Below are positions 1 through 27,955 of a stretch of DNA of 64,000 bases, in pieces (the first letter of the stretch is position 1; every line of letters starts with the position of its first letter). This DNA comes from Nitrososphaerota archaeon (GTDB taxonomy: Archaea; Thermoproteota; Nitrososphaeria_A; Caldarchaeales; Calditenuaceae): assembly GCA_041641295.1 (NCBI GenBank), contig JBEPYO010000001.1:608001-672000 (forward strand), in the 5' to 3' direction. Below the pieces are notes generated by a model that was given only the letters and a program-made list of their open reading frames with translations, was not told where the DNA came from and did not search any database. A program made the translations under genes and the position numbers.

Positions 1-701
1 TCATAGAAGAATTCTCGAGATGCTTGGGACAGGTTCTTAATAGGTATCCGCCGAAGCCTGCACCAATAGGAAACGGGTTCTTCCGAGTAATTGTTCAATC
101 AAAGGCTCTCTACGACCTGCTTCGGAAGCCTATCGACATAGAGGTGATAAGACCATTCGTGGAGCATTGTGAAGAGTGTATGAAGAGCTTTTTGAGAGGA
201 TTCTTCGACAGCGAAGGCTCAGTAAGTAGTTATGGCTCTATTACATGCGTCAACACTGACGAAAGACTCATCAACTATGTTAAGATGCTTCTAAATAATC
301 TAGGCATCAAAACAACTGGGCCACATCTTCAGATGAAGAGAGGAACACCATTCTTCAGCAAGAAGAGGGGCAAGACCTACCGGACAAGAAAGGACGCCTA
401 TAGCCTCTACATCAGGACATGCAGCAGGCTAAAATTCTACGAGCTAGTAGGCTTCACAATCAAGAAAAGGCAGCAAAGATTAGAAGAATACCTGAGGAGA
501 CTAGGACGCCTAAACATGCCACCCAGCCAAACCTCCCCCCAAACACTATCCTCAACTCCCATCTCAACCTCCCACTCACAATATAGAATATCCGGAATGG
601 CCGCGGGTGGGACTCGAACCCACGATCGCCGGGTCCACAGCCCGGAGTGTTACCAGCTACACCACCGCGGCCACCGCTACGAGTTCGCAGATTTCAGGTA
701 A
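1..701 (+). CDS. LAGLIDADG-family endonuclease-like protein, 5' end outside the window
   Basis: Motif FLRGFFDSEGSV is present. The frame is open from base 3 (IEEFSRCLGQVLNR). It aligns by eye with 9266..10426. The C-terminal tail reads through tRNA-His on the opposite strand. Confidence 0.85.
   Translation, partial: IEEFSRCLGQVLNRYPPKPAPIGNGFFRVIVQSKALYDLLRKPIDIEVIRPFVEHCEECMKSFLRGFFDSEGSVSSYGSITCVNTDERLINYVKMLLNNLGIKTTGPHLQMKRGTPFFSKKRGKTYRTRKDAYSLYIRTCSRLKFYELVGFTIKKRQQRLEEYLRRLGRLNMPPSQTSPQTLSSTPISTSHSQYRISGMAAGGTRTHDRRVHSPECYQLHHRGHRYEFADFR
599..672 (-). tRNA. tRNA-His(GTG), intron-less, with genomically encoded G-1
   Basis: Cloverleaf: GCCGCGG acceptor stem, CCGGG-CTGTGGA-CCCGG anticodon arm, GTGGG-TTCGAGT-CCCAC T arm, discriminator C, and G at -1 (base 672). 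Confidence 0.95.
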
Positions 702-728
702 TATATTTGAGGGTGCCGGGTCTTAGAT

Positions 729-1049
729 TTAGGCGTATTCCCGCCAAGTGTAGCCGCACTTAGTGCATCTGAAGAACTGTGTCATGGGCTCGTCGGCGGA
801 TCTTGTCTGGACGCTCCACCAGTAGGCTTCCTGGTTTCCACACTGTGGGCACTGTACGTCGCCGGTCTTCGGCAGCACCTCCTTCTCAACATCATCGACT
901 ATCACTGTTTTCCGCGGCTTCCTCTGTTTGTGGGTGATGATGTCGCCTGTAGGCTTCTTCACATACCCACACTTTCTACAGACCAGTACTACGCTGTTTG
1001 ACTTCCGCTCAGTGATTAGGACTGCGTCGCAGCGTGGGCAGAACTCCAT
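729..1049 (-). CDS. tfs: transcription factor S (TFS, RpoM family)
   Basis: Two Zn ribbons and the QTRSADEP acidic hairpin motif. Confidence 0.92.
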   Translation of the reverse strand: MEFCPRCDAVLITERKSNSVVLVCRKCGYVKKPTGDIITHKQRKPRKTVIVDDVEKEVLPKTGDVQCPQCGNQEAYWWSVQTRSADEPMTQFFRCTKCGYTWREYA

Positions 1050-1130
1050 GCCTCATCCTCCACCTCTTACACCGAGAGAATAGCACCGCACGGTTATTTG
1101 ATTAACCTTATTCAAGGCCACCCGCCTCTC

Positions 1131-1409
1131 CTATGATAGGAGCTGCTGTATCGACTCTCTCAACCCCTTCGCCCTTGAGGAGAGTTCGCGTACGCCCTTC
1201 AGCAATACGTCGGCGGCTTTATGCCCCTCGCGAGTCCTAAGTATGAACCTTAACGTCCCGATTAGAGGGTGTGTTAGGGTGACGCCGGCGTATTCAACCT
1301 CCTCGAAAGAGTTGAGAACCTCCTGTAGCGAATCAAGGATGCTGAAGTCTATGTCTTTCAGCTCTAGCTCTAAGACGTTTTCACCCCTCTCGATTACCTT
1401 GACCTCCAG
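1131..1409 (-). CDS. rpoL: DNA-directed RNA polymerase subunit L (92 aa), probable CTG start; absent from the ORF track
   Basis: Manual translation gives (L/M)EVKVIERGENVLELELKDIDFSILDSLQEVLNSFEEVEYAGVTLTHPLIGTLRFILRT..., with the HPL motif. It sits in the conserved csl4-rpoL-tfs order. Confidence 0.85.
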   Translation of the reverse strand: MEVKVIERGENVLELELKDIDFSILDSLQEVLNSFEEVEYAGVTLTHPLIGTLRFILRTREGHKAADVLLKGVRELSSRAKGLRESIQQLLS

Positions 1410-2014
1410 AGCAGACCACCACCCTCCGGTGAAAGCAACCCTCCAAACATCTTAAGGAGCGTATTAACCTTCCCGTAGTAGGGGACTATCGGCCTGTTAG
1501 TATATTTCCTCTTACACCTTGTGCAGAAGAGGGCTCTGCCACTCAGGGTCAGGGGGGCGCCGCATATATCGCAGAAAGCCTGGAAGACGCCAAGACCACG
1601 ACCCCTAACCGTGAGGCTGTATATGCCAGAGTAGTCCTCCCGGATCCGCGCTACAATTATGTCTCCCACGGTGAAGAGTGGTGTTTCGCGGCGTTGTAGG
1701 GCTGCCGCTGTCCAGTGGGTCTTGACCGGGTGGCCGGCTGCAGCGAGTATGTCGCAGATAACTAGCTTGTCTTGGACCTCTCTAACTTGGCAGAGGACGA
1801 GGTCTCCCGTCCTGATCTTTACCGAGGGCTTTGCGGCCTTGACAGAGACCGAGTGTCTCTTCAAGTCGTACTCCGCAACCCCAGCGACGGTTGCCACCAC
1901 GGCCCCGTCTTTTAGGACCTCTGCACCCTCACCCGGCATGAACTCCTCCACTACGCAGAGCTTATCGCCTGGAAGGACTAGCCTGCCTGATGCTTGAAAC
2001 CTCACTCCGAGCAT
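1394..2014 (-). CDS. csl4: exosome RNA-binding protein Csl4
   Basis: LVLPGDKL...EEFMPGEG N-terminus, S1 domain, C-terminal CxxC...CxxC Zn ribbon. Confidence 0.85.
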   Translation of the reverse strand: MLGVRFQASGRLVLPGDKLCVVEEFMPGEGAEVLKDGAVVATVAGVAEYDLKRHSVSVKAAKPSVKIRTGDLVLCQVREVQDKLVICDILAAAGHPVKTHWTAAALQRRETPLFTVGDIIVARIREDYSGIYSLTVRGRGLGVFQAFCDICGAPLTLSGRALFCTRCKRKYTNRPIVPYYGKVNTLLKMFGGLLSPEGGGLLWRSR

Positions 2015-2066
2015 AGACTGCTACGGGGAGTAGATAAAGTAGATGTTCCATCATGAGGGGTGTGAG

Positions 2067-2666
2067 ATGGGTGGGCGGGGGTTGATTGTGGCCATCGAAG
2101 GAATTGACGGCGCTGGGAAGACAACCCAGGCTAAGCGGCTTGTGAGATTTCTAAGGTCGAAGGGCGTGGCGGCAGAGTATACCTCGGAGCCGACCAGCTC
2201 CGCCCTCGGAAAGATGATTAAGTCCTACTTGAGGCGGGGAGGAGTGGACCCCCACCTGCTGGCCCTCCTCTTCGCAGCAGACAGAGTCTACCATCTAAAC
2301 AAAACTGTCAACCCATTGCTGGAGAGGGGCCGCGTAGTGGTTTGTGACAGATACCTTTACTCGTCCTATGCTTATCAGGGCGTGATGACCGGCCATCCCC
2401 TTTGGGTCAGGGAGATTAACAGGATGGCCCCACCACCAGATATCGCTGTCCTGCTGGACATCAGCGTTGAAGAAGCCCTTAGGAGGAAGAAGAGGAGGAT
2501 AAGGTTCGAGGACCCGGCCTTCCTAGAGGAGGTTAGGAGGGAGTATCTTAGACTGTGCGAGGCTGGGTTGATGGTAAAGGTAGACGCCGGAGGTGGGGTA
2601 GACGCAGTCTTCGTCGAGCTGGTGCGGGTTGTTTCGCCGCGGCTTGGCCTGAGTCCTAGCGCATGA
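2067..2666 (+). CDS. tmk: thymidylate (dTMP) kinase
   Basis: IEGIDGAGKTT P-loop, LFAADR and CDRY motifs. Start placed at ATG 2067. Confidence 0.92.
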   Translation: MGGRGLIVAIEGIDGAGKTTQAKRLVRFLRSKGVAAEYTSEPTSSALGKMIKSYLRRGGVDPHLLALLFAADRVYHLNKTVNPLLERGRVVVCDRYLYSSYAYQGVMTGHPLWVREINRMAPPPDIAVLLDISVEEALRRKKRRIRFEDPAFLEEVRREYLRLCEAGLMVKVDAGGGVDAVFVELVRVVSPRLGLSPSA

Positions 2667-3154: not shown

Positions 3155-4436
3155 TCTCCAGCTTTAGGAAGTGTGTCGCACAGGAGATGCATGGGTCGTA
3201 GTTTCTTACCGCCTGCTCGAACCGCCAGACTGCCTGGCTACGTGGGAGCCTCACTATCTCGGGGGCTAGGGCCCGGAGGTCCTCCTCAATCCTCTTCTGG
3301 TTCTGGGCTGTGGGGGGCACTATCTTGGCTGAGAGTATCCGGCCCTCGCCATCCACGTCGTATCTGTGGTAGAGTATGCCTCTCGGAGCCTCAGTGCATC
3401 CGCAACCTCTCCCAGCTCTGACCTGCGGCTCAACCCTAGGACTCGACGGCTCAACATATTCGTCGATAATCCTGAGAGCCTCCTCAAAGGAGTAGTATGT
3501 CTCAGCAACTCGCGCGATTATGCTCTTGAACGGGTTCCTGCAAGGTGTCTTAAAGCCGATTCTCCTTAAGGCCCCTTTTGTGCGGTCGTGGAGCTTGTCA
3601 TAGTTAAGGTTGATTCTGGAGAGGGGGCCGACCATGTATGAGCCCCTGCCGACTATGTAGGAGTGTAGCGCATTGGAGTGTGGGACCTGCTCCTCCGCAA
3701 AATAGTCCTCGTACTGGTCAACATCAATGTCCAATCCCTTATTCGACACAATCCTTCCCTCGTTCATCGGATACTCTTCTGGGTGTCTGAGGGAGACGAA
3801 CTCGTAGTCCTGCTCAAAAGCAGGGAACTCTAGGTCCGCAACCCACTCCAGCAGGTCTTCAACAGTCGCCATGTTTTCTACTAGTCGCTCCCTCAGCTCC
3901 ATTAGCTCGCGCTTAGAAGGCACGCGGTAGAACCCACCTACGCATGCTGAGACAGGGTGAATCTCCCGGCCACCCAGCAGCGAGACTATATCATTTCCCA
4001 GCTTCTTCACCTTGAGGGCATTCTTCACTACTCTGGGGTGTTTCTTAGCCATCTTAATTGCGTCGTCGTATCCTAGGAAGTCGGGTGCGTGGAGGAGGAA
4101 GGCGTGGAGCATGTGGCTCTCTATCCACTCACCACAGTAGTAAAGCCTCCTCAGACTCCTCACCGACGGGGCTATGGTTACGCCGAAGAGCCTTTCAAAA
4201 GCATGCACCGAGCTCATCTGATAAGCCACAGGGCAAATCCCGCAGATCCTAGCAGTTATATCTGGGGCGTCATAGTACATCCGGCCCACTAGCAGTGCTT
4301 CGAAGAGCCTCGGAGGCTCGAATATCCTGAACTTGACGTCCACCACCTCGCGGCCTCTAAGCTTGATGTAGAGCGCGCCCTCGCCCTCAACCCTGGCTAG
4401 GTAGTCCACACGGTATTCCTTCTCCCTAGCAGTCAA
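3141..4436 (-). CDS. group 3b [NiFe]-hydrogenase large (alpha) subunit
   Basis: ARVEGEG, L1 motif RICGIC, L2 motif DPCISCATH followed by a short cleavable tail. Confidence 0.95.
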
Positions 4437-5203
4437 GCCTCAGCCTCCACCTCCCTAAAGCCAGGCGCCCAAGCGTTGAAGAGTCTGAAGGCCATGACGA
4501 CTTCCTCCCGCCTCCTACCCAGCTCTATGAAACGCTTCATTAGTGACTTAGAGTTAAGCGACTCTTTAGGCCCGTAGCAGCCATAGCATCCCCTCCCATA
4601 GGCTGGGCAGATGGCCCCACAGCCTGCATGAGTCACTGGCCCGAGACATGGAACGCCCCGAGCCACCATTACACATGCCGTGCCCCTCAGCTTACACTCG
4701 ACACAGACGCTCTGGTTGGGAATGCTGGGCGCCCTCCCCGAGAGGTACGCCGAAATCACCTCGAGTAGCTGGTACTTGTTTATTGGGCAGCCCCGGAGTT
4801 CGAAGTCAACCGGCACGTGGTCTGAGATGGGGGTAGACTTGTCCAGCGTCTCGATGTATTCTGGCTTCGGATAGACGTATTTCATAAACTCGGCTGAGCC
4901 CCTCCAGTTCCTGAGGGCCTGTATCCCGCCTGCTGTCGCGCACGCGCCTATGGTTATGAGTACTCTGCAGTTCTTCCTGATCTCTTTGATGAGCTCGGCG
5001 TCGTGGGGGGTTGTGATGCTTCCCTCTACTAGGCCGATGTCATATGGGCCCTTAACTACTGCACGGCTTGCCTCCAAGAAGTACGCGATCTCGAATGTCT
5101 CGCCAATTGTTAGCAACTCCTCCTCCAAGTCGAGGATGCTTAGCTGGCAGCCATCACATGACGCGAATTTATAGACTGCAATCTTTGGCCTTCTCTTCGC
5201 CAT
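4433..5203 (-). CDS. group 3b hydrogenase small (delta) subunit
   Basis: [14 protein letters not shown] and GCP FeS motifs. Start MAKRRPK at 5203 overlaps the upstream stop (TGATG). Confidence 0.92.
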
Positions 5204-6060
5204 CACACCTCCCTCCGCCCGAAGAAGTTTGAGACTTCTGAGAGGCTGAAGACAGGCCCATCCTTGCAGACGAAGAACGGGCCGAACTGGCAGTGCCCAC
5301 ATATACCGACGCCACACTTCATATTCCTCTCCATAGAGATGAAAATCCTCTCATCTGGAAGCCCCTGATTCTTCAACTCCTGCACGGTAAACCTCATCAT
5401 TATCTCAGGGCCGCAGACGTATGCATAGGTGTTGTTTGGCTCGAGCCTCAAGTATCTGAACAGTGTTGTGACTACGCCTATGTATCCGCGCCACTTCTCA
5501 TCCCCTCTATCTACAGTGACGAGTAGCTGGGTGTCCAGCCTGCTCCTCCAGACACGCAGTTCTTTCTTATAGAGCAGGTCGGCTGGCGTGCGGGCCCCAT
5601 AGAGAACATAGAGCTTCCCATACTTCTCCCTGTTTCTTATTATGTGTTGTATTGCCGGTCTTAGGGGTGCTAAACCTATTCCACCCCCAACAATAATTAC
5701 GTCCTGACCCTCAGCCTCTCTGAGCGGCCACCCCCTACCGAAGGGCCCCCTCAACCCCACGCTCGAACCTATCCGCGCCGTCGTCAAGGCCTTGGTCACA
5801 GGCCCCACCGCCCTCACGGTATGCTCCAGTGTCTGCCCGTTGGAGGAGGCTCCGCTTATGGAGATGGGGACCTCGCCCACGCCATAGGCGTAGAGCATGT
5901 TGAACTGGCCGGGGCTGAAAGCTATCTCGCCACGCCTGAGCGGACGAAGCCTAATGGTGTACGTGTCAGGCGTCTCTTTATTCCGTCCAACCAATTGGCA
6001 CCAATCAATCCTGAACGGCTCTAGAGCGGTGGCCGCTCCGAGACTCTGCTCAGTCATCAC
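5203..6060 (-). CDS. group 3b hydrogenase gamma subunit (FAD/NAD(P)-binding, 2Fe-2S)
   Basis: [15 protein letters not shown] and [11 protein letters not shown] motifs. Confidence 0.92.
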
Positions 6061-6542: not shown

Positions 6543-7675
6543 GTCGCACTCACCTCCAGCACCCTCTGCCTAATCTTCGCCGCCTCCTCCGTAATATCTA
6601 TCCCCACTGGGCACCAAGTGATGCACCTGCCACAGCCCACACAGCCCATGACGCCGAACTGGTCAATCCACGTCGCGAGCTTGTGTGTAAACCACTGACG
6701 ATACCTGCTCATCCTACTAGACCTGATGGGGCCTCCGTGGATATAGGAGAAGTCGGCATTGAAGCATGAGTCCCATCTCCTCCAACGCTCAGCAACATTG
6801 CCCGAAAGAGTTGTAACCTCCTCAACAGTCGTGCAGAAGCATGTGGGGCAGACAAGTGTACAGTTAGCGCATGCGAGACACCTCTCAGCAACCTCTGCGT
6901 AGACCGGGCTCTCGAGGTTTTTGTACAACAAGTCCTTCAGACCGTTCACGTCCAGACCCTTCCTAAACAATGTTCGAGCCCTCTCAATCCTCGCAGCGGC
7001 CTCTGAGACTTCCTCGTCAGTCGCCCTCCGCGCACCGATACGCTCTAGGAGGCTCTTGCCAGCACTCGAACCCGCCTTAGCTACGAAGTAGTGTACACCA
7101 TCGCCCACTACCTCAGTGAGGCCTATATCGTAGCCCGACCCCGCCTCAGGCCCCGTGCCGACGGATAGGCAGAAGCAGTTCTCACCCGGCTCGGTACAGT
7201 TGACCGCAACTATGAAGACCTCGCGCCTCATTGCCGAGTAGACTGGGTCCACGTATGGGCCGCCCAGCAACACCTTGTCTAGGACCGAGATGGCGGCGAG
7301 CTCACACCCCCTAACCCCTATGAAGGCCAGCTTCTTCCCCAACACGTTGTTGGGGGTGACTTCACCTTTTCTCGAAACTGTGAAGAGTTTGACGCGGGGT
7401 GGATATAGAAACCTCTTCCACGAGTGTGGGCCTACTACGAAGCCGAAGAACGCCTTATCACCTCTCTCCTCTAGCCTGTAGTATCCTGGCCCCTGCCTAT
7501 CCCTCAGCCCCACTGGTAGCTGAGAGGCTGACTCAATCTCATCGTACACTATGGCACCCTCCCTGACTACTGGCCCAATAACAGAGTATCCAAGCCCTCG
7601 AAGAGCTGTGATTAGCTCGCCGAGAAGCGGGGGGTCGAGAAGATAATGATCGCTTTGATCTCTAAGTTCCCCCAT
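6539..7675 (-). CDS. group 3b hydrogenase beta subunit (4Fe-4S dicluster)
   Basis: [16 protein letters not shown] and [12 protein letters not shown]. Start placed at ATG 7675, downstream of the TATA-like box at 7701-7710. Confidence 0.9.
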
Positions 7676-7700
7676 CACATGTTTTAGAGTATTGAAAATC

Positions 7701-7750
7701 ATATAAATATATCGTGCCTTCATGCTGAAGGTCTATGCTTTCATGCTGAA
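7701..7750 (-). promoter_or_regulatory. putative hydrogenase operon promoter: TATA-like box with two upstream TTCA-N3-TGAA palindromes
   Basis: The minus strand reads ATATTTATAT at 7710-7701. TTCATGCTGAA occurs at 7719-7729 and 7740-7750. Confidence 0.55.
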
Positions 7751-7788
7751 TATTATTGAGATATGTAGACAAGCATAAGGGTGTGGAA

Positions 7789-8568
7789 CTAGTCTACACT
7801 TAGGCCCGCATTCCTGAGAACGTGTTTGAGCGCATCAGCGAACCGCGTCGAAAGAAGCTCATCCCTCCCCAGCCTGCCGCTCCGCGAACTCAGCAACGGG
7901 TCAAAAGGAATCTCTCCTAGAAACGCAACGCCTTTAGCACGCGCCAGCTCCTTCGTAGGACTCTCAGGGTCGCTGGTGGACATGTTCTCTACGAGGCCGA
8001 TTATTTTTAGAGACGCCGACCTCAGAATATCTATGAGTCTTCCGGCCACGTTTACTGCCAAGTGCGTCGGCGTGGTAATCACGATTGCTCCGCCACTCCT
8101 CTTAACGTATTTCGAGATCGTGAGAAGTTCGTCCCCAGTCCCCGGAGGCATGTCTACTAACAGGTAGTCGAGCCTGCCGAAGGCTGTTAGGGCCAGCATC
8201 TCCTTCACGATCTCCTCCTTGGCCTGCCCTGTTAGGGGGAGGGGCCTACCCTTCGAGAAAAGGTCGATGGACATAACCTTCAACCCCTCCACCACCGGCG
8301 GGACCAGACCCTCTCCCGACTCGACAGGATTGTCCTCAACACCTAGTAGTAGGCATGAAGAGGGGCCATGCAGGTCGAGGTCGAGCAGCCCTGTCCTATT
8401 GGATGCCCGTGAGAGCATGAGGGCGGCGGTGGCGGCTATTAGGCTCTTCCCCACACCACCCTTCCCGCCCGTGACCAAGATTATTTGAGAGATTTTTCCT
8501 ATGTTCTCCTCGATGAGGGAGTCTCTGTAGTCGAGCCGGCCCCCACTATCCCTCGACGCATACGACAT
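7789..8568 (-). CDS. Mrp/MinD-family P-loop ATPase, probably ATPase-type HypB
   Basis: GGKGGVGKS, LDLDLHG, DMPPGTGDE and ENMS motifs; coupled to hypA as in Thermococcales. Confidence 0.8.
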   Translation of the reverse strand: MSYASRDSGGRLDYRDSLIEENIGKISQIILVTGGKGGVGKSLIAATAALMLSRASNRTGLLDLDLHGPSSCLLLGVEDNPVESGEGLVPPVVEGLKVMSIDLFSKGRPLPLTGQAKEEIVKEMLALTAFGRLDYLLVDMPPGTGDELLTISKYVKRSGGAIVITTPTHLAVNVAGRLIDILRSASLKIIGLVENMSTSDPESPTKELARAKGVAFLGEIPFDPLLSSRSGRLGRDELLSTRFADALKHVLRNAGLSVD

Positions 8569-14125: not shown

Positions 14126-14222
14126 GGGCCGGTAGATCAGCGGTAGATCGCCCGCCTCGCAAGCGGAGGCCTCGCTCCGCCGAGAACGCGGGAGGTCCCG
14201 GGTTCGAATCCCGGCCGGTCCA
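14126..14222 (+). tRNA. tRNA-Ala(CGC) with a canonical 25-nt intron at 37/38 (14162..14186)
   Basis: G3:U70 pair in the GGGCCGG/CCGGTCC stem. BHB formed by the CTCG/CGAG helix and the GCGGAG/CTCCGC intron stem. Confidence 0.95.
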
Positions 14223-23372: not shown

Positions 23373-23906
23373 TTAACCGCTTGGACGTGGCTCGGTTTTT
23401 CCAAGACTAAGGATCTGTGAGGGCCTGAGTACCGATACTCCAGTGACACCTCCGAGGACCTCTATTAGCACTATCCAGTCGGGGTTCTCGAGGTTCACTT
23501 TGCGGTCCACCCTGGCCGCTACCGCCTCTATCACCTCGCGGCTCGAGAGCTGCGTGTGCCGCTTCTCCACGACCACCTTATACGTCGCATCAGGCGGTAT
23601 CTTGTCCTTCAGCCGGTCTACAGTCGCGGCTATCTCCTCAATCTTGCTTTGGGCCACAAGCTCTACAGGTATCAGCCTCATGATGCCCTCCACCTTGATG
23701 GGCTCCTTGGCTGCAATCTCTCTAGCCCTCTCGACGACCTGGAATGGGTCTAGCCGAGTGTAGGCCGTTAAGACGCCCTGAATCTTGGTTATCTCCACCT
23801 GGGGGTTCTCGTCACCCATCTCGCCCAGGAGGCTTGATAGTGTTGCTACACCCAGGACCTCCTGCCCTCTAAGGGTTGTCGCTATCAAGTTGAATGGCCT
23901 GGTCAT
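23373..23906 (-). CDS. THUMP-domain RNA-binding protein
   Basis: FNLIATT, TYKVVVEKR, KVNLENPDWIVLIEVLG. Confidence 0.88.
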   Translation of the reverse strand: MTRPFNLIATTLRGQEVLGVATLSSLLGEMGDENPQVEITKIQGVLTAYTRLDPFQVVERAREIAAKEPIKVEGIMRLIPVELVAQSKIEEIAATVDRLKDKIPPDATYKVVVEKRHTQLSSREVIEAVAARVDRKVNLENPDWIVLIEVLGGVTGVSVLRPSQILSLGKTEPRPSG

Positions 23907-24317
23907 CCGGCTAGTAAAGGTGCGCGCAGGGACAAAAACATCTCTCACCACCATTAGAGGGGTATCTCGGCTAACCTCCTGCCTCGTAGAACGCCTGGCC
24001 AGTCGGGCAAACCCCCATCTAAGAGGCTTGCACTATCCAAAACCAGAAAAACCAGCACATACATTTAAACAAATAGACATCACGGCGAAAATAGTGTAAC
24101 AAAATAAACCTATCACATGGGATTCCAGGCATTTACTAAGAACGGAGAGATAGAGCGTGATAATAGCACCGTCAGCGAGTTTTTGTCATGGGGTCAGAAA
24201 CATGACCACTGGTTCTCTAAGAAGCATGATTGGTCTCCTTTGCTCAGGATTGAGGCTACGCTTGGCAAGAACTATCTTATATTAAGGTGCATCCCAGACT
24301 TAGCCATAATACAACAC

Positions 24318-24950
24318 CTACAACCATCCTAGAAGGGCCTCCACTAGTGAACTAACGTTACTGCTGTTGCTGATGAGGATGGAGGGATGTGAATGATCTC
24401 CTTCGCGCTCCATCTTAAAGCCTACCTGAGGCGGGTCGAAGTAAGCGGGGTTTCTTACGACCCCTGTCTCTGTAGTAATCTTATCCAATCCAGCCATTTC
24501 CAAGGCCACGAAGAACTTGGAGGTAGCCCCACCTATCATAACTAGCTTCGCACCGCTTAAAGCAGCATTTCTAAGGAAGACAAGTAGCCTAGGATCACTC
24601 AAACTCTTCTCGAACCACTCGCCTCCGAATACGACCAACGTGTTAGCGCTCAGCGCCACATCTCCCGGAATATCTGCTAAAGATGTTATACGAGCCCCTC
24701 TAAATTCAAGCTCTTTAACAACTTCAGACGCCAACTTACCACCGCCTATATGAAGAACCATAAAATTACTTAAATCGCGCTGCACGCTCCATCCTCCCGG
24801 TGTTTGAATACTCCGTGACCACATTGTTGATAGTAGAAAACTTGAAGATAATATAATGATTAATGCTGATAGTACAATCAACCCCAACATAATCATGCTT
24901 TTTCTTTCTTTGATCGATAAAAGTTTCCTATCTACATGGATTATCATCAC
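24318..24950 (-). CDS. membrane-anchored hypothetical protein
   Basis: N-terminal TM helix followed by an alpha/beta domain. Confidence 0.6.
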   Translation of the reverse strand: MMIIHVDRKLLSIKERKSMIMLGLIVLSALIIILSSSFLLSTMWSRSIQTPGGWSVQRDLSNFMVLHIGGGKLASEVVKELEFRGARITSLADIPGDVALSANTLVVFGGEWFEKSLSDPRLLVFLRNAALSGAKLVMIGGATSKFFVALEMAGLDKITTETGVVRNPAYFDPPQVGFKMEREGDHSHPSILISNSSNVSSLVEALLGWL

Positions 24951-25326
24951 TAAGCTTGTATTGTCAACTTCTACTTAAGCTTAGTTCATATTCTCATTTA
25001 AGGTGGTTGTATCCGCGACAGGCCTGTTACCGAATGGGCTCTCTCATATGCGCTTACATTCTGGAGAGGATTATCAAGACGGCACCAATCTCTATCAGGC
25101 CTAATAAATTGACAAGTGTCCCGACACAGCCCACTTTCACGGTACTGAAGACTGCCTCATTTAAGATGTTGTCGCTAAAATGCTAACTATACAAAATATG
25201 AAGACTCTTAAAAAGGACTGTGATAGACTCCATCAGACCTTAAATGACCTCCCTTATATTTGGACACCACATACCAAAAAATAAAAGAAAGGTAAGTAAT
25301 GCTTAGTATATGGAGGGTAGCGGTAT

Positions 25327-26337
25327 TTGAAAAACGTCACCCTCATTTTTGACGATAAATGTGCTATATGTCGGAGACTTGCCACTGATGTGAAAAAATA
25401 TTCTTATGGGTTAATAAGGGCATTACCGCTTGACAGCGGCGAATCGAAAGAGTTGCTCCATAAACTATATGGTGAACACCCTCCCAACAGCTTCTTTCTA
25501 ATTCAGCAAGATGGAAGCTATATACAGGTGAGTTATGGTATCAGGGCAGCTTTTAAAATAGCTAGTCTGGTGGGTCTCAAGAATGCTGTGAGGCTTTTTG
25601 CATCTTATCTCGACTATCACAGGGTGCTCAGGAGGTCGTTGAGGTCAAACATATGCTGTAATAATGGAACTATAGCGATTAATGTGGCTAAACGTCGAAC
25701 ATTAAACTTCCTAATTAGGGGCGGGGTCTTATTAGCATTTTACGCATTGCTAGGGTCTTGGCTTATTCCCAAGACTCTCGGAGAACAGCGGGAAAGACCT
25801 ATAAGAATAATTGAGACAAGACGAGTAGCTGGTGAAGAAAAAAGGAATATCTTAGGGGGTGTCATCTCTGATAATGACTTCCTAAATGCAATGCACTGGC
25901 TAATCAGAAATTCCTTCACGCCTCAGATCAATGACGCTAGCGTGGAGCATATTTTTGCCCAGGCTGGTGAGACACAGCTGGTCTTTCTCAAAGTACAAAT
26001 ACCATTCAGAGGTGAGGGGGACCCCCAACTGCTCTTCATAAGAGGCATAGAGGGTCCGCTGAAGGATGAAAAAGTGGCTCTAGCGTCTTATATTTCTCCA
26101 GATGGCCACCAACACGGATTCGCGAGTAAAGATGGAATAACCAGAGAGGTTACCTATGGGAGCCATGATCCTCTAGGCTGCGGAATCTGCTTAGCCAGAT
26201 GCGTGGTGCTCACTTGCTGGACATGTTGGATCGCATGCGCATATGCGTCTACGGGTGTAGGTGTTGCGCTTTGCCTCGTATGCACCCTAGTATCTTGTCC
26301 ATTCTGTTTTACGGGGTGTTACTCGTACTGTCGGTAG
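25327..26337 (+). CDS. DCC-type thioredoxin domain plus Tat-like signal plus Cys-rich C-terminal peptide (halocin C8-like precursor)
   Basis: FDDKCAIC (DxxCxxC), KRRTLNFL followed by a hydrophobic helix, 12 Cys in the last 52 aa, GGAGGGT SD-like sequence before the TTG start. Confidence 0.7.
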   Translation: MKNVTLIFDDKCAICRRLATDVKKYSYGLIRALPLDSGESKELLHKLYGEHPPNSFFLIQQDGSYIQVSYGIRAAFKIASLVGLKNAVRLFASYLDYHRVLRRSLRSNICCNNGTIAINVAKRRTLNFLIRGGVLLAFYALLGSWLIPKTLGEQRERPIRIIETRRVAGEEKRNILGGVISDNDFLNAMHWLIRNSFTPQINDASVEHIFAQAGETQLVFLKVQIPFRGEGDPQLLFIRGIEGPLKDEKVALASYISPDGHQHGFASKDGITREVTYGSHDPLGCGICLARCVVLTCWTCWIACAYASTGVGVALCLVCTLVSCPFCFTGCYSYCR

Positions 26338-26370
26338 GTTGTCAAACCCTTTTGATAGGTGTTAGCGACC

Positions 26371-26730
26371 ATGTCTATGGATTATGATTGGAAGAGAGCT
26401 AGGAGAATTGCAGTATATCACATAATGTTGGGATTGATGTTTTTAATACCTACTTTACTTGGTCCATTTGCTCTGCTCTTAAACTTAGACGTATATTGGC
26501 CTCGTGGTTGGTATTGGTTATATGTAGCTCCGCCGATATACGGGTCTATGGCAGTCCACAACTTCCTTATAGCTTATGGTCTACGGAGGAAGAGGCCTTG
26601 GGCGTGGCGTGAGACGGCTCTCAAGGACCCAAGATGGTACGCCTCAAGACGCTCAATACTCTCGGCAATAGCAATAACAATCATAATAGTTGTGTCAATT
26701 ATAATATTATTTTTTTCATATGCGGGGTGA
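26371..26730 (+). CDS. small multi-pass membrane protein (candidate immunity protein)
   Basis: About 3 hydrophobic helices; directly downstream of the Cys-rich precursor gene. Confidence 0.6.
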   Translation: MSMDYDWKRARRIAVYHIMLGLMFLIPTLLGPFALLLNLDVYWPRGWYWLYVAPPIYGSMAVHNFLIAYGLRRKRPWAWRETALKDPRWYASRRSILSAIAITIIIVVSIIILFFSYAG

Positions 26731-27111
26731 TGCTCTCACGTTCCAGCCCCTCACAACCTTGTAGACATACTTGATGACCTTATCGTCGAAGGGCCTCCAC
26801 TATTGTGGATGTGGATGACGCCATAGAACACTCTCTCATCTCTTCAGCAGTATATGAAATATGTATCATCCACCCACCTCAGTCTCCTTGGCCTCTAATA
26901 CTCCAGTGCAAACATCGCCCTCGTCGTCCCTCAGCTCAAACTCCTTCAGCTTGGCAATTCTCTCGGATAGCGGCTCATCAAACCTGACATAAGTCCGCCA
27001 GGGCCTATACCCTTTAGACGAATATTCCAACCACTCACGGTTGCTCGAATTGGGAGTAGTGGATATAAACGGTTGAGGCCCGACAGAACAGAACACCCCA
27101 GATCTAAACAA
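26730..27111 (-). pseudogene. probable degraded gene remnant
   Basis: Short protein-like frames (…VRFDEPLSERIAKLKEFEL…; …PFDDKVIKYVYKVVRGW…) broken by stops or frameshifts. Confidence 0.3.
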
Positions 27112-27388
27112 CCAAAATCACTAATGAAGGGAATAATAAGAGAGTGAACAGGAGAATTAGGACAAGAAGGAAAAATAGGGGAAGTTGGCCGGGCGGCACT
27201 CCACCAGAGAACCCGGAAGATCCAGGCAGCAGTGCTACGACCTAAGCTTGTTGGGGGTTAAAATCCTTATATCTGATGGAAGAGTATTGGTATAGTCCAC
27301 TTTGAGGACAGGGTTATAGAGATTCCCACACAAGCTAAGAAGTTAACAGTTAAATCCCTGGTTGTGTTGATATGATTTAAGATGCCTC

Positions 27389-27955
27389 ATGAGTGAAGAA
27401 TGGTGGCGTAGGAGGAGGTTCTTCCGGCCCTTCGAGTTCATCGATGAGATGATGAGGGAGTTTGAGCGCTGGTTTGAGGAGGAGTTTAGAAGGTTTGAGA
27501 GGGAGTGGCCCAAGGAGCTGGTGAGGGAGGTTAGGACCCCGACTGGGGTGCGGAGGGAGATAGGCCCGATAGTCTATGGATACTCAATAACGATAGGCCC
27601 TGATGGGCGACCAGTCGTCAGGGAGTTCGGGAACGTCAGGCCGAGCAGGCGCGGAGAACTCCCAGCCCTCACCGTGGAGAGGGAGCCGCTAGTCGACATG
27701 ATAGTCGAGGATGAGCAGATAAAAGTGGTAGCCGAGGTCCCAGGCGTCAGGAAGGAGGACATTAACCTGACTGTGCGCGACTCCAGACTCATCATCAAGG
27801 TTGACACAGAGACTAGGAAATATTACAAGGAGCTGGACCTGCCTGAGGAGGTTGAGCCCGAGAAGGCTAAGGCCACTTATAACAACGGAGTCCTCGAGGT
27901 GGTTTTGCCCAAGAAGGGAGGCGGTCACCCGCCGAAGACCATAAAGGTCGAGTAG
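27389..27955 (+). CDS. small heat shock protein Hsp20
   Basis: GPIVYGYSITIGPDG, EPLVD, AEVPGV, ATYNNGVLEV. Confidence 0.95.
   Translation: MSEEWWRRRRFFRPFEFIDEMMREFERWFEEEFRRFEREWPKELVREVRTPTGVRREIGPIVYGYSITIGPDGRPVVREFGNVRPSRRGELPALTVEREPLVDMIVEDEQIKVVAEVPGVRKEDINLTVRDSRLIIKVDTETRKYYKELDLPEEVEPEKAKATYNNGVLEVVLPKKGGGHPPKTIKVE

Follow-up and report, generated by a model that had tools for sequence, protein, structure and literature searches.

A divergent DCC1-like redox domain fused to an internal twin-arginine-type segment and a twelve-cysteine tail in a hot-spring archaeon: candidate precursor of an exported antagonistic peptide

The genome of a hot-spring archaeon of the Calditenuaceae (Nitrososphaerota archaeon, assembly GCA_041641295.1) encodes a 336-residue protein that joins, in a single chain, a divergent DCC1-like thioredoxin-fold domain, a vicinal cysteine pair, an internal twin-arginine (RR)-type segment, a folded middle domain and a tail carrying twelve cysteines. 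The open reading frame (ORF; 25327..26337, plus strand, TTG start) lies in a 64,000-nucleotide stretch of contig JBEPYO010000001.1 (positions 608,001–672,000), hereafter the window, whose numbering is used throughout. Judged by sequence, the protein belongs to a rare, undescribed family of patchy distribution. We favour a reading, held at slightly less than an even chance, in which it would be a precursor exported along the Tat route (twin-arginine translocation) and would yield an antagonistic peptide stapled by disulfides; a cytoplasmic oxidoreductase would be part of the same chain, and a separate protein would confer immunity. The initial annotation had proposed a self-maturing archaeocin; we keep 'self-maturing' as a working hypothesis, with export, cleavage, disulfides and bioactivity each a prediction. 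A literature search for DUF393/DCC1-like proteins with twin-arginine or cysteine-rich parts returned no description of such fusions, and an earlier mention may exist.

All the parts picked out in the initial annotation (FDDKCAIC, CC, KRRTLNFL with its helix, a pro-region and a 6+6 cysteine tail) are found in this frame. The ORF is real rather than a chance frame, since 31 other protein clusters match it at E ≤ 1e-3, the best (P0002) at E 1.8e-30; these derive from phmmer, run exhaustively over 1.84 billion representatives, which gave 32 proteins including the query. A word-indexed homologue search with the ORF recovered the query alone, and an alignment-based query added five haloarchaeal members. 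The shared plan consists of an N-terminal [DN]xxCxxC domain, an RR motif with a hydrophobic stretch at residues 100–150 and a C-terminal part with 8–20 cysteines. By a loose rule, a basic pair and hydrophobic stretch are present at residues 100–150 in 25 of the 32 proteins. The seven outside it are P0004, P0006, P0022 and P0023 (short, or truncated behind the first domain), P0017 and P0032 (RR- or KR-type motif present, hydrophobicity cut not reached) and P0021, which lacks the DCC domain. In P0019 and P0030 the signal is present without a cysteine-rich end. Short forms (200–265 residues) carry the cysteine-rich part directly after the signal, and long forms (307–485 residues, the window protein among them) have the middle domain inserted.

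The N-terminal motif FDDKCAIC occupies residues 8–15, providing C12 and C15, and the DCC-type domain first proposed for this region is borne out as a divergent DCC1-like thioredoxin fold. PF04134 (DCC1-like) matches residues 6–100 with E 8.5e-4 and 21 bits, under the Pfam cut-off of 27.8 bits, and also matches 11 of 15 aligned family members (best E 8.5e-6); an NCBIfam scan of the whole protein gave no meaningful match. In an AlphaFold2 model built from a 35-sequence alignment, residues 1–110 adopt a thioredoxin-like fold (pLDDT, predicted local distance difference test, 93–98), resembling thioredoxins, glutaredoxins and the N-terminal domains of glutathione S-transferases (Foldseek E 1e-2; fold-search Z 5.3–7.5). 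Among the 35 sequences C15 is invariant and C12 is kept in at least 90%; the redox site is therefore maintained, not decaying as a leader. The DxxCxxC motif, fold and length of about 100 residues are common to the DCC1-like/DUF393 family (PF04134, YuxK-type), from which the window domain departs in its sub-threshold score. Known DCC1-like members, and those met in related phyla, are stand-alone proteins of about 130–140 residues, whereas the window domain is fused to a signal and a cysteine-rich cargo that is predicted to be exported. The vicinal pair sits at the equivalent position in P0002, P0003, P0004, P0005, P0007 and P0008 and is invariant in alignment A2; before the RR motif, archaeal long forms keep CC and haloarchaeal members have CxC. 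C110–C111 is possibly a shuttle cysteine pair.

Following K121-R122-R123-TLNFL is a hydrophobic stretch (15-residue Kyte–Doolittle mean of 2.02), present as a helix at residues 120–145 in the AlphaFold2 model. The window KRRTLNFL aligns with the RRxFL motifs of homologues, and most homologues carry an RR motif, the lack of which the initial annotation would have taken as a refutation: 21 of the 32 family matches have the strict form RRxF[LIVMT], and two more have RK or KR variants. Many family signals end in an AxA-like site shortly before the first cysteine. The window RR pair, at residues 122–123, lies behind a folded domain, away from the position of an N-terminal signal. The host genome encodes TatC (128 bits) and two TatA proteins (41.5 and 31.4 bits). 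The initial call of a Tat-like signal thus gains from an RR-type signal conserved across the family and from TatC and TatA in the genome, but is weakened by a window motif that is off consensus. One family member bears on the coupling of domain and route: P0021, from a Methanosarcinales metagenome-assembled genome, combines the middle domain and a comparable hydrophobic cysteine tail with an N-terminal signal of the ordinary kind, and because it lacks the DCC domain this single case suggests that the redox domain accompanies the RR-type route.

Beyond the helix, residues 156–278 are modelled at pLDDT 83–96 as one strand followed by two helices and an antiparallel sheet of six strands. A pro-region had been proposed between helix and tail; a region is present there, but given this high pLDDT it is a folded domain and not a linker. 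Fold searches with the middle domain gave no clear match (best Z 6.9, on beta-barrel fragments), and the middle domain and tail alone match no Pfam or NCBIfam model at E ≤ 10. The domain is common to P0002, P0003, P0007, P0008, P0012, P0019, P0028 and the DCC-less P0021, and may serve as a pro-domain or shield.

The 52-residue tail (285–336) holds its cysteines at 285, 288, 292, 297, 300 and 304, and at 316, 319, 324, 327, 331 and 335, the two sets of six flanking an 11-residue AYASTGVGVAL. It is strongly hydrophobic (grand average of hydropathy 1.42), with R291 and R336 as the only charged residues. C-terminal hypervariability among homologues, suggested as a check, is indeed seen: the ends are unalignable and differ from member to member in cysteine number and spacing, and the best-scoring stretch ends at or before query residue 230 in all matches except P0021. 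Of the 23 members with at least six cysteines after the signal, 20 have an even number of them (values from 8 to 20, including 10, 14 and 18; binomial P = 2.4e-4, with relatives not independent). This even parity, with several counts not divisible by four, is more in keeping with full disulfide pairing than with four-cysteine metal sites.

Immediately downstream of the fusion gene is a gene for a 119-residue membrane protein, a candidate immunity or partner protein. A word-indexed search among 5.8 billion clusters returned no homologue of it, and in the 40 relatives there was a single weak match (G020), partial and interrupted by two stops. A second copy of the junction between the two genes exists. 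Window 26186..26616 (plus strand) is duplicated at locus L002 1186–1634 (minus strand; G000:C1, about 349.6–350.06 kb), with 69% nucleotide identity over 450 bp (blastn, tblastx). The L002 copy begins at tail residue 287 and extends across most of the membrane-protein gene; tail and membrane protein therefore move as one unit, as their shared duplicated stretch indicates. Its tail keeps 11 of 12 cysteine positions while most other residues are changed, has neither N-terminal part nor start codon and is frameshifted by a 1-nucleotide deletion near the end. The membrane-protein paralogue beside it is intact, 70% identical over 84 residues, and is the sole other copy found. The ratio of nonsynonymous to synonymous divergence between the paralogues (dN/dS) is 0.11, with dS saturated at 1.6, and by this measure the membrane protein has been under purifying selection. 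A tail-only locus with an intact partner is the pattern of orphan toxin-end/immunity cassettes.

The orphan cassette has a GC content of 0.44–0.45 against 0.51–0.58 in its flanks. Beside it are genes for a 151-residue anchored or secreted protein (L002 1713–2168, plus strand) and an 88-residue membrane protein (L002 2268–2534, plus strand). Two readings of the orphan locus were considered and rejected: that a window flank holds a fragment of the LLM oxidoreductase gene which adjoins the orphan copy (blastn and tblastx gave the 450-bp match only), and that the truncated G006 DCC gene, described below, and the orphan locus share one ancestral site (translations inspected by eye suggest that the neighbouring LLM genes are different paralogues).

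Polymorphic toxins such as CDI and Rhs proteins combine a conserved N-terminal part with a variable end and a small downstream partner, and also occur as orphan end-and-partner loci. The window family shares a conserved N-terminal part, an unalignable end, a partner gene downstream and a second locus with tail and partner. It differs in lacking a known toxin fold, delivery repeats and a pre-toxin domain; its ends are tiny cysteine-rich peptides, and one orphan cassette only was seen, with its end frameshifted.

Halocin C8 is a system to which the initial annotation had likened the protein. The available part of the source (bioRxiv 10.64898/2026.07.27.741052) describes ProC8 of Natrinema as a 283-residue, Tat-exported precursor consisting of a HalI immunity part and the 76-residue HalC8, with halR directly upstream. 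ProC8 and the window protein share an order of parts, namely a signal (of Tat type in the window protein by prediction), a folded domain and a hydrophobic cysteine-rich C-terminal end, and both are patchy and island-like in distribution. As far as that part of the source goes, the ProC8 signal is N-terminal and a redox domain is lacking, whereas the window signal is internal, behind a 110-residue domain; the mature ProC8 peptide has 76 residues against 12 cysteines in 52 residues for the window tail; and its immunity is in cis, whereas the window candidate is a separate membrane protein. The hosts differ too, a halophile and a hot-spring archaeon. P0021, with its N-terminal signal, middle domain and cysteine tail, has the ProC8 layout.

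Homology to halocin C8, implied by the initial annotation, found no support at the level of sequence or profile for either HalC8 or HalI. The whole protein matched neither TIGR04449 (halocin_C8_dom) nor PF22862 (Hac8_like_N) at E ≤ 1, taking NCBIfam to include TIGR04449; hhalign of the middle-and-tail alignment against three PF22862-positive precursors gave probabilities of at most 0.1%, and BLASTP of the window tail against halocin C8 tails reached E 0.7. A low-confidence model of a ProC8 homologue (pLDDT 41) has two helices followed by a five-strand meander, an order of elements whose resemblance to the window middle domain is only suggestive.

Gene context gives a further point of contact. 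We compared the neighbourhoods of four other family members (L027, L029, L058 and L059). HalR-type regulators (HVO_A0261_N plus FilR1_middle) adjoin both a halC8 homologue (L047) and the haloarchaeal member in G826, divergently transcribed, and one lies 1.9 kb from the P0021 gene as the only copy in that 1-Mb genome. They are thus near two of the four related loci, with none near the G959 member and none in G000; G826, G474 and G959 each hold 8–10 copies. The resemblance to halocin C8 loci is functional and contextual, with homology not demonstrable.

From these elements a route can be proposed. While the protein is still cytoplasmic, the N-terminal CxxC domain and the vicinal CC would form or shuffle the disulfides of the tail; the oxidized cargo would thereby fold and pass Tat proofreading. 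Once TatC and TatA had been engaged by the RR helix, the tail would cross the membrane together with the middle domain, and the redox domain would be left inside, anchored by the signal helix. The first domain is most likely cytoplasmic, because it stands at the very N-terminus and the helix has its RR-positive side turned inward. Outside, the 52-residue tail would be cut from the middle domain and act on the membranes of competing cells, with the downstream 119-residue membrane protein protecting the producer.

Both unusual features of this route have parallels. FecR, in the available part of PMC12036975, begins with a cytoplasmic domain, carries its RR internally (Arg79/80) and relies on Tat for insertion; the likeness lies in a cytoplasmic N-domain, an internal RR with one helix, and a C-terminal part across the membrane. 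FecR is a sigma regulator with unrelated domains, and its Tat dependence is proven whereas that of the window protein is predicted. The available part of PMC9995818 states that Tat refuses unfolded cargo, that disulfide-dependent proteins pass only if oxidized in the cytoplasm and that, in Escherichia coli, Tat export of a disulfide protein required engineered cytoplasmic disulfide formation (CyDisCo). Cargo would likewise be oxidized in the cytoplasm prior to Tat acceptance in the window protein; CyDisCo is engineered and works in trans with Erv1p and PDI, whereas the window arrangement would be a natural cis fusion.

Several observations count against the proposal of an exported antagonistic peptide. 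Its functional steps are derived from sequence, models and context. The window KRRTLNFL departs from RRxFL and from the Tat consensus S/T-R-R-x-F-L-K, and no AxA-type cleavage site follows the window helix, so that the segment may be a plain uncleaved signal anchor. The tail is modelled at low confidence (pLDDT 35–46), and comparison with models of known toxins, bacteriocins and halocins gave no match to any region of the protein (Pfam, NCBIfam, hhalign). To our knowledge no function has been established for DCC-family proteins. The membrane proteins beside homologues are unrelated to each other, and the haloarchaeal locus in G959 has no small membrane gene downstream. Since dS is saturated, the orphan copy may have been under purifying selection before its partner was lost. 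Haloarchaeal tails, finally, are of a metallothionein-like CGCGCC type with 14–20 cysteines in about 50 residues, which favours metal binding.

That last point leads to an alternative we consider unlikely, in which Tat would export a metal-thiolate or metal-cluster protein (for copper, zinc or another metal) for storage or detoxification. Its cysteine-rich end would take up metal in the cytoplasm, its DCC domain would keep thiols reduced or help loading, and Tat would carry out the folded cargo once it was loaded. Besides the haloarchaeal ends, it draws on the 3–4-residue spacing of the window tail cysteines along predicted short helices, and on the hot-spring origin of the sample. Cysteine-lined helical copper storage proteins have a comparable arrangement. 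Against metal binding, cysteine spacing varies between members and no classical metal or Fe–S motif recurs; even parity (10, 14, 18) is not required for metal sites; and the window tail, with its two charged residues, is of high hydrophobicity. Neither a DUF326/Csp nor a metallothionein model matches, the island that carries the gene contains no metal transporter or metal regulator, and the retained orphan membrane-protein copy is hard to account for. The Tat route itself suits a metalloprotein, the pathway typically moving cofactor-loaded proteins according to the available part of PMC12036975.

An uncleaved membrane-anchored thiol-redox relay or sensor, in which the RR helix is a positive-inside signal anchor, a cytoplasmic CxxC/CC relay exchanges redox equivalents with an outer cysteine-rich domain and nothing is released or toxic, seems to us quite unlikely. 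It would explain the conserved CxxC together with a second CC/CxC pair near the membrane, the transmembrane helix predicted at 120–145, the off-consensus window motif and the missing cleavage site. A housekeeping relay would be expected to keep its outer domain, and here the ends are unalignable; short forms carry AxA-type sites directly before the cysteine-rich part; the distribution is sporadic and island-borne; and P0021 has the same outer module without the cytoplasmic domain.

A disulfide-rich peptide that is exported for a role other than killing (signal, surface or adhesion module, self-recognition) would share the architecture, parity and export evidence with the antagonistic peptide, and is favoured by the lack of a recognizable toxin domain. 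We regard it as distinctly improbable, since hypervariable ends with a dedicated membrane protein and an orphan end-and-partner cassette are typical of toxin–immunity pairs, as is the HalR-type regulator context that related loci have in common with halocin C8 loci.

If the exported antagonistic peptide is the right reading, the DCC/DUF393-type domain would gain a role, the oxidative folding of export cargo in cis; the protein would show how cysteine-rich peptides use the folded-protein Tat route; and cysteine-rich halocin-like antagonistic peptides would extend past halophiles to hot-spring archaea and bacteria. The fusion would offer a compact, testable design for secretion of disulfide-rich peptides, and the tail, partner membrane protein and orphan cassette would supply a ready toxin/immunity hypothesis in a poorly studied archaeal lineage. 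A more ambitious version, rather unlikely in its entirety, would make this a natural single-chain case of 'oxidize in the cytoplasm, export folded', carried out by DCC and CC ahead of an internal Tat signal, with the DCC domain staying as an anchor and the peptide released as a weapon; it would assign a function to DCC/DUF393 and define a new class of polymorphic peptide toxins common to archaea and bacteria, with halocin C8-type precursors perhaps distant kin.

The full-length gene was found in none of 40 relatives and in none of 400 other genomes of the phylum, 49 of which give weak matches to the DCC part alone, in open frames of about 130–170 residues. Within the genus, G006 holds a 129-residue relative that stops just after the CC (L055, G006:C12, 7288–7677, minus strand), with no signal or cysteine-rich part downstream. 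Of 301 sampled Halobacteriota genomes, 12 had a match at E ≤ 1e-5, comprising 11 stand-alone DCC proteins and the DCC-less P0021; with a haloarchaeal profile, 2 of 401 haloarchaeal genomes yielded a full-length member. The Halosimplex salinum record is named 'thiol-disulfide oxidoreductase DCC family protein' and that of Halorubellus litoreus 'hypothetical protein'. ESM Atlas contributes unnamed Actinomycetota clusters of 299–390 residues, as a lead only. Plasmid, phage and viral contig collections gave no family match; of the metagenome scans, one with alignment A3 found no relative and a second found P0005's own contig only.

In the window, the gene occupies a low-GC insertion island between a THUMP-domain gene and an HSP20 gene (Table 1). 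The same two genes are separated by about 90 nucleotides in G003, G005 and G007, of the same genus, against 3.4 kb here. None of the three island ORFs (the 210-residue anchored protein, the DCC fusion and the 119-residue membrane protein) has a full-length match in the 40 relatives; the 210-residue ORF was not found there at all and has no Pfam or NCBIfam match. An imperfect 24-nucleotide direct repeat brackets 2.45 kb with all three (by rough estimate, 4.7 kb would hold about 0.002 such pairs by chance). The repeat may be the scar of an attachment site; the low-GC zone reaches beyond it. A functionless gene, decaying or silent and merely carried along with imported DNA, is a very improbable reading: the gene is strain-specific and low in GC, has a shortened 129-residue relative in G006 and a frameshifted second tail copy, but the 336-codon frame is intact behind a Shine–Dalgarno-like site, with all catalytic cysteines and family hallmarks kept and confidently folded domains. 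The sequencing runs listed as containing the stretch are three DNA runs from hot springs, possibly its source, and no RNA run, a blank that counts neither for nor against a silent gene.

Table 1. Features of the fusion gene, its island and the HalR-type regulators at related loci. Coordinates are those of the window unless a locus is named.
Feature	Coordinates	Strand	Remarks
Shine–Dalgarno-like GGAGGG	25312..25317	+	9 nucleotides 5' of the TTG start; putative role
Divergent DCC1-like thioredoxin-fold domain, residues 1–108 (D9-x-x-C12-x-x-C15)	25327..25650	+	Pfam, model; predicted cytoplasmic
Vicinal C110–C111, junction of redox domain and RR motif	25654..25659	+	Sequence; putative shuttle
K121-R122-R123-TLNFL and hydrophobic helix, residues 121–146	25687..25764	+	Alignment, model; twin-arginine-type signal or signal anchor
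Folded middle domain, residues 156–280	25792..26166	+	Model; may be pro-domain or shield
12-cysteine tail, residues 285–336, and stop codon	26179..26337	+	Candidate released peptide
119-residue membrane protein	26371..26730	+	ATG start (GTG 26359 also possible); starts 33 nucleotides after the fusion-gene stop
Island ORF, 210 residues, N-terminal membrane anchor	24318..24950	-	ORF list
Low-GC insertion island, 3.4 kb	23955..27388		GC 0.39–0.50 against 0.55–0.58 in flanks
Imperfect 24-nucleotide direct repeat (21/24)	24326..24349 and 26782–26805		13-nucleotide exact core GAAGGGCCTCCAC; alignment
Divergent THUMP-domain gene, left island flank	23373–23954	-	
HSP20 gene, right island flank	27389–27955	+	
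HalR-type regulator, L027	4069–4908	-	HVO_A0261_N + FilR1_middle
HalR-type regulator, L058	5975–6775	+	HVO_A0261_N + FilR1_middle
HalR-type regulator, L047	2199–3020	-	HVO_A0261_N + FilR1_middle

At the same THUMP/HSP20 site, G006 has a different 1.6-kb insert (L054, G006:C11, 6680–8250) with a split LAGLIDADG-type endonuclease gene (ORFs 7153–7779 and 7646–8047), and the intergenic site looks like an insertion hotspot. A thioredoxin reductase gene 2.5 kb from the fusion gene belongs to the conserved backbone, so its nearness carries no meaning. Near the 129-residue relative in G006, translations read by eye suggest a PIN-like ORF and a small upstream partner ORF, these neighbours lying at 4725–5320.

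Other family members sit in varied surroundings. The G959 member (L059) lies in a patch of GC 0.52–0.62 within flanks of 0.65–0.70, with an IS66-family transposase 1.9 kb upstream (features at 779–2236, minus strand, and 4136–5554, plus strand); patch and transposase are another sign of horizontal movement of the family. P0005, from a soil-type metagenome (L029), has a gene of the secreted peptidase A4 (G1) family upstream (306–1580, plus strand) and two small membrane ORFs downstream, convergent with it (3949–4520, minus strand). A part in processing is conceivable for the peptidase. Kinship between the window's downstream membrane protein and those of P0021 and P0005 was considered and rejected, since they are unrelated. 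Elsewhere in the window, Rfam places a 97-nucleotide tRNA (58 bits) at 14126–14222 (plus strand) that is absent from the ARAGORN list and is probably an intron-containing archaeal tRNA.

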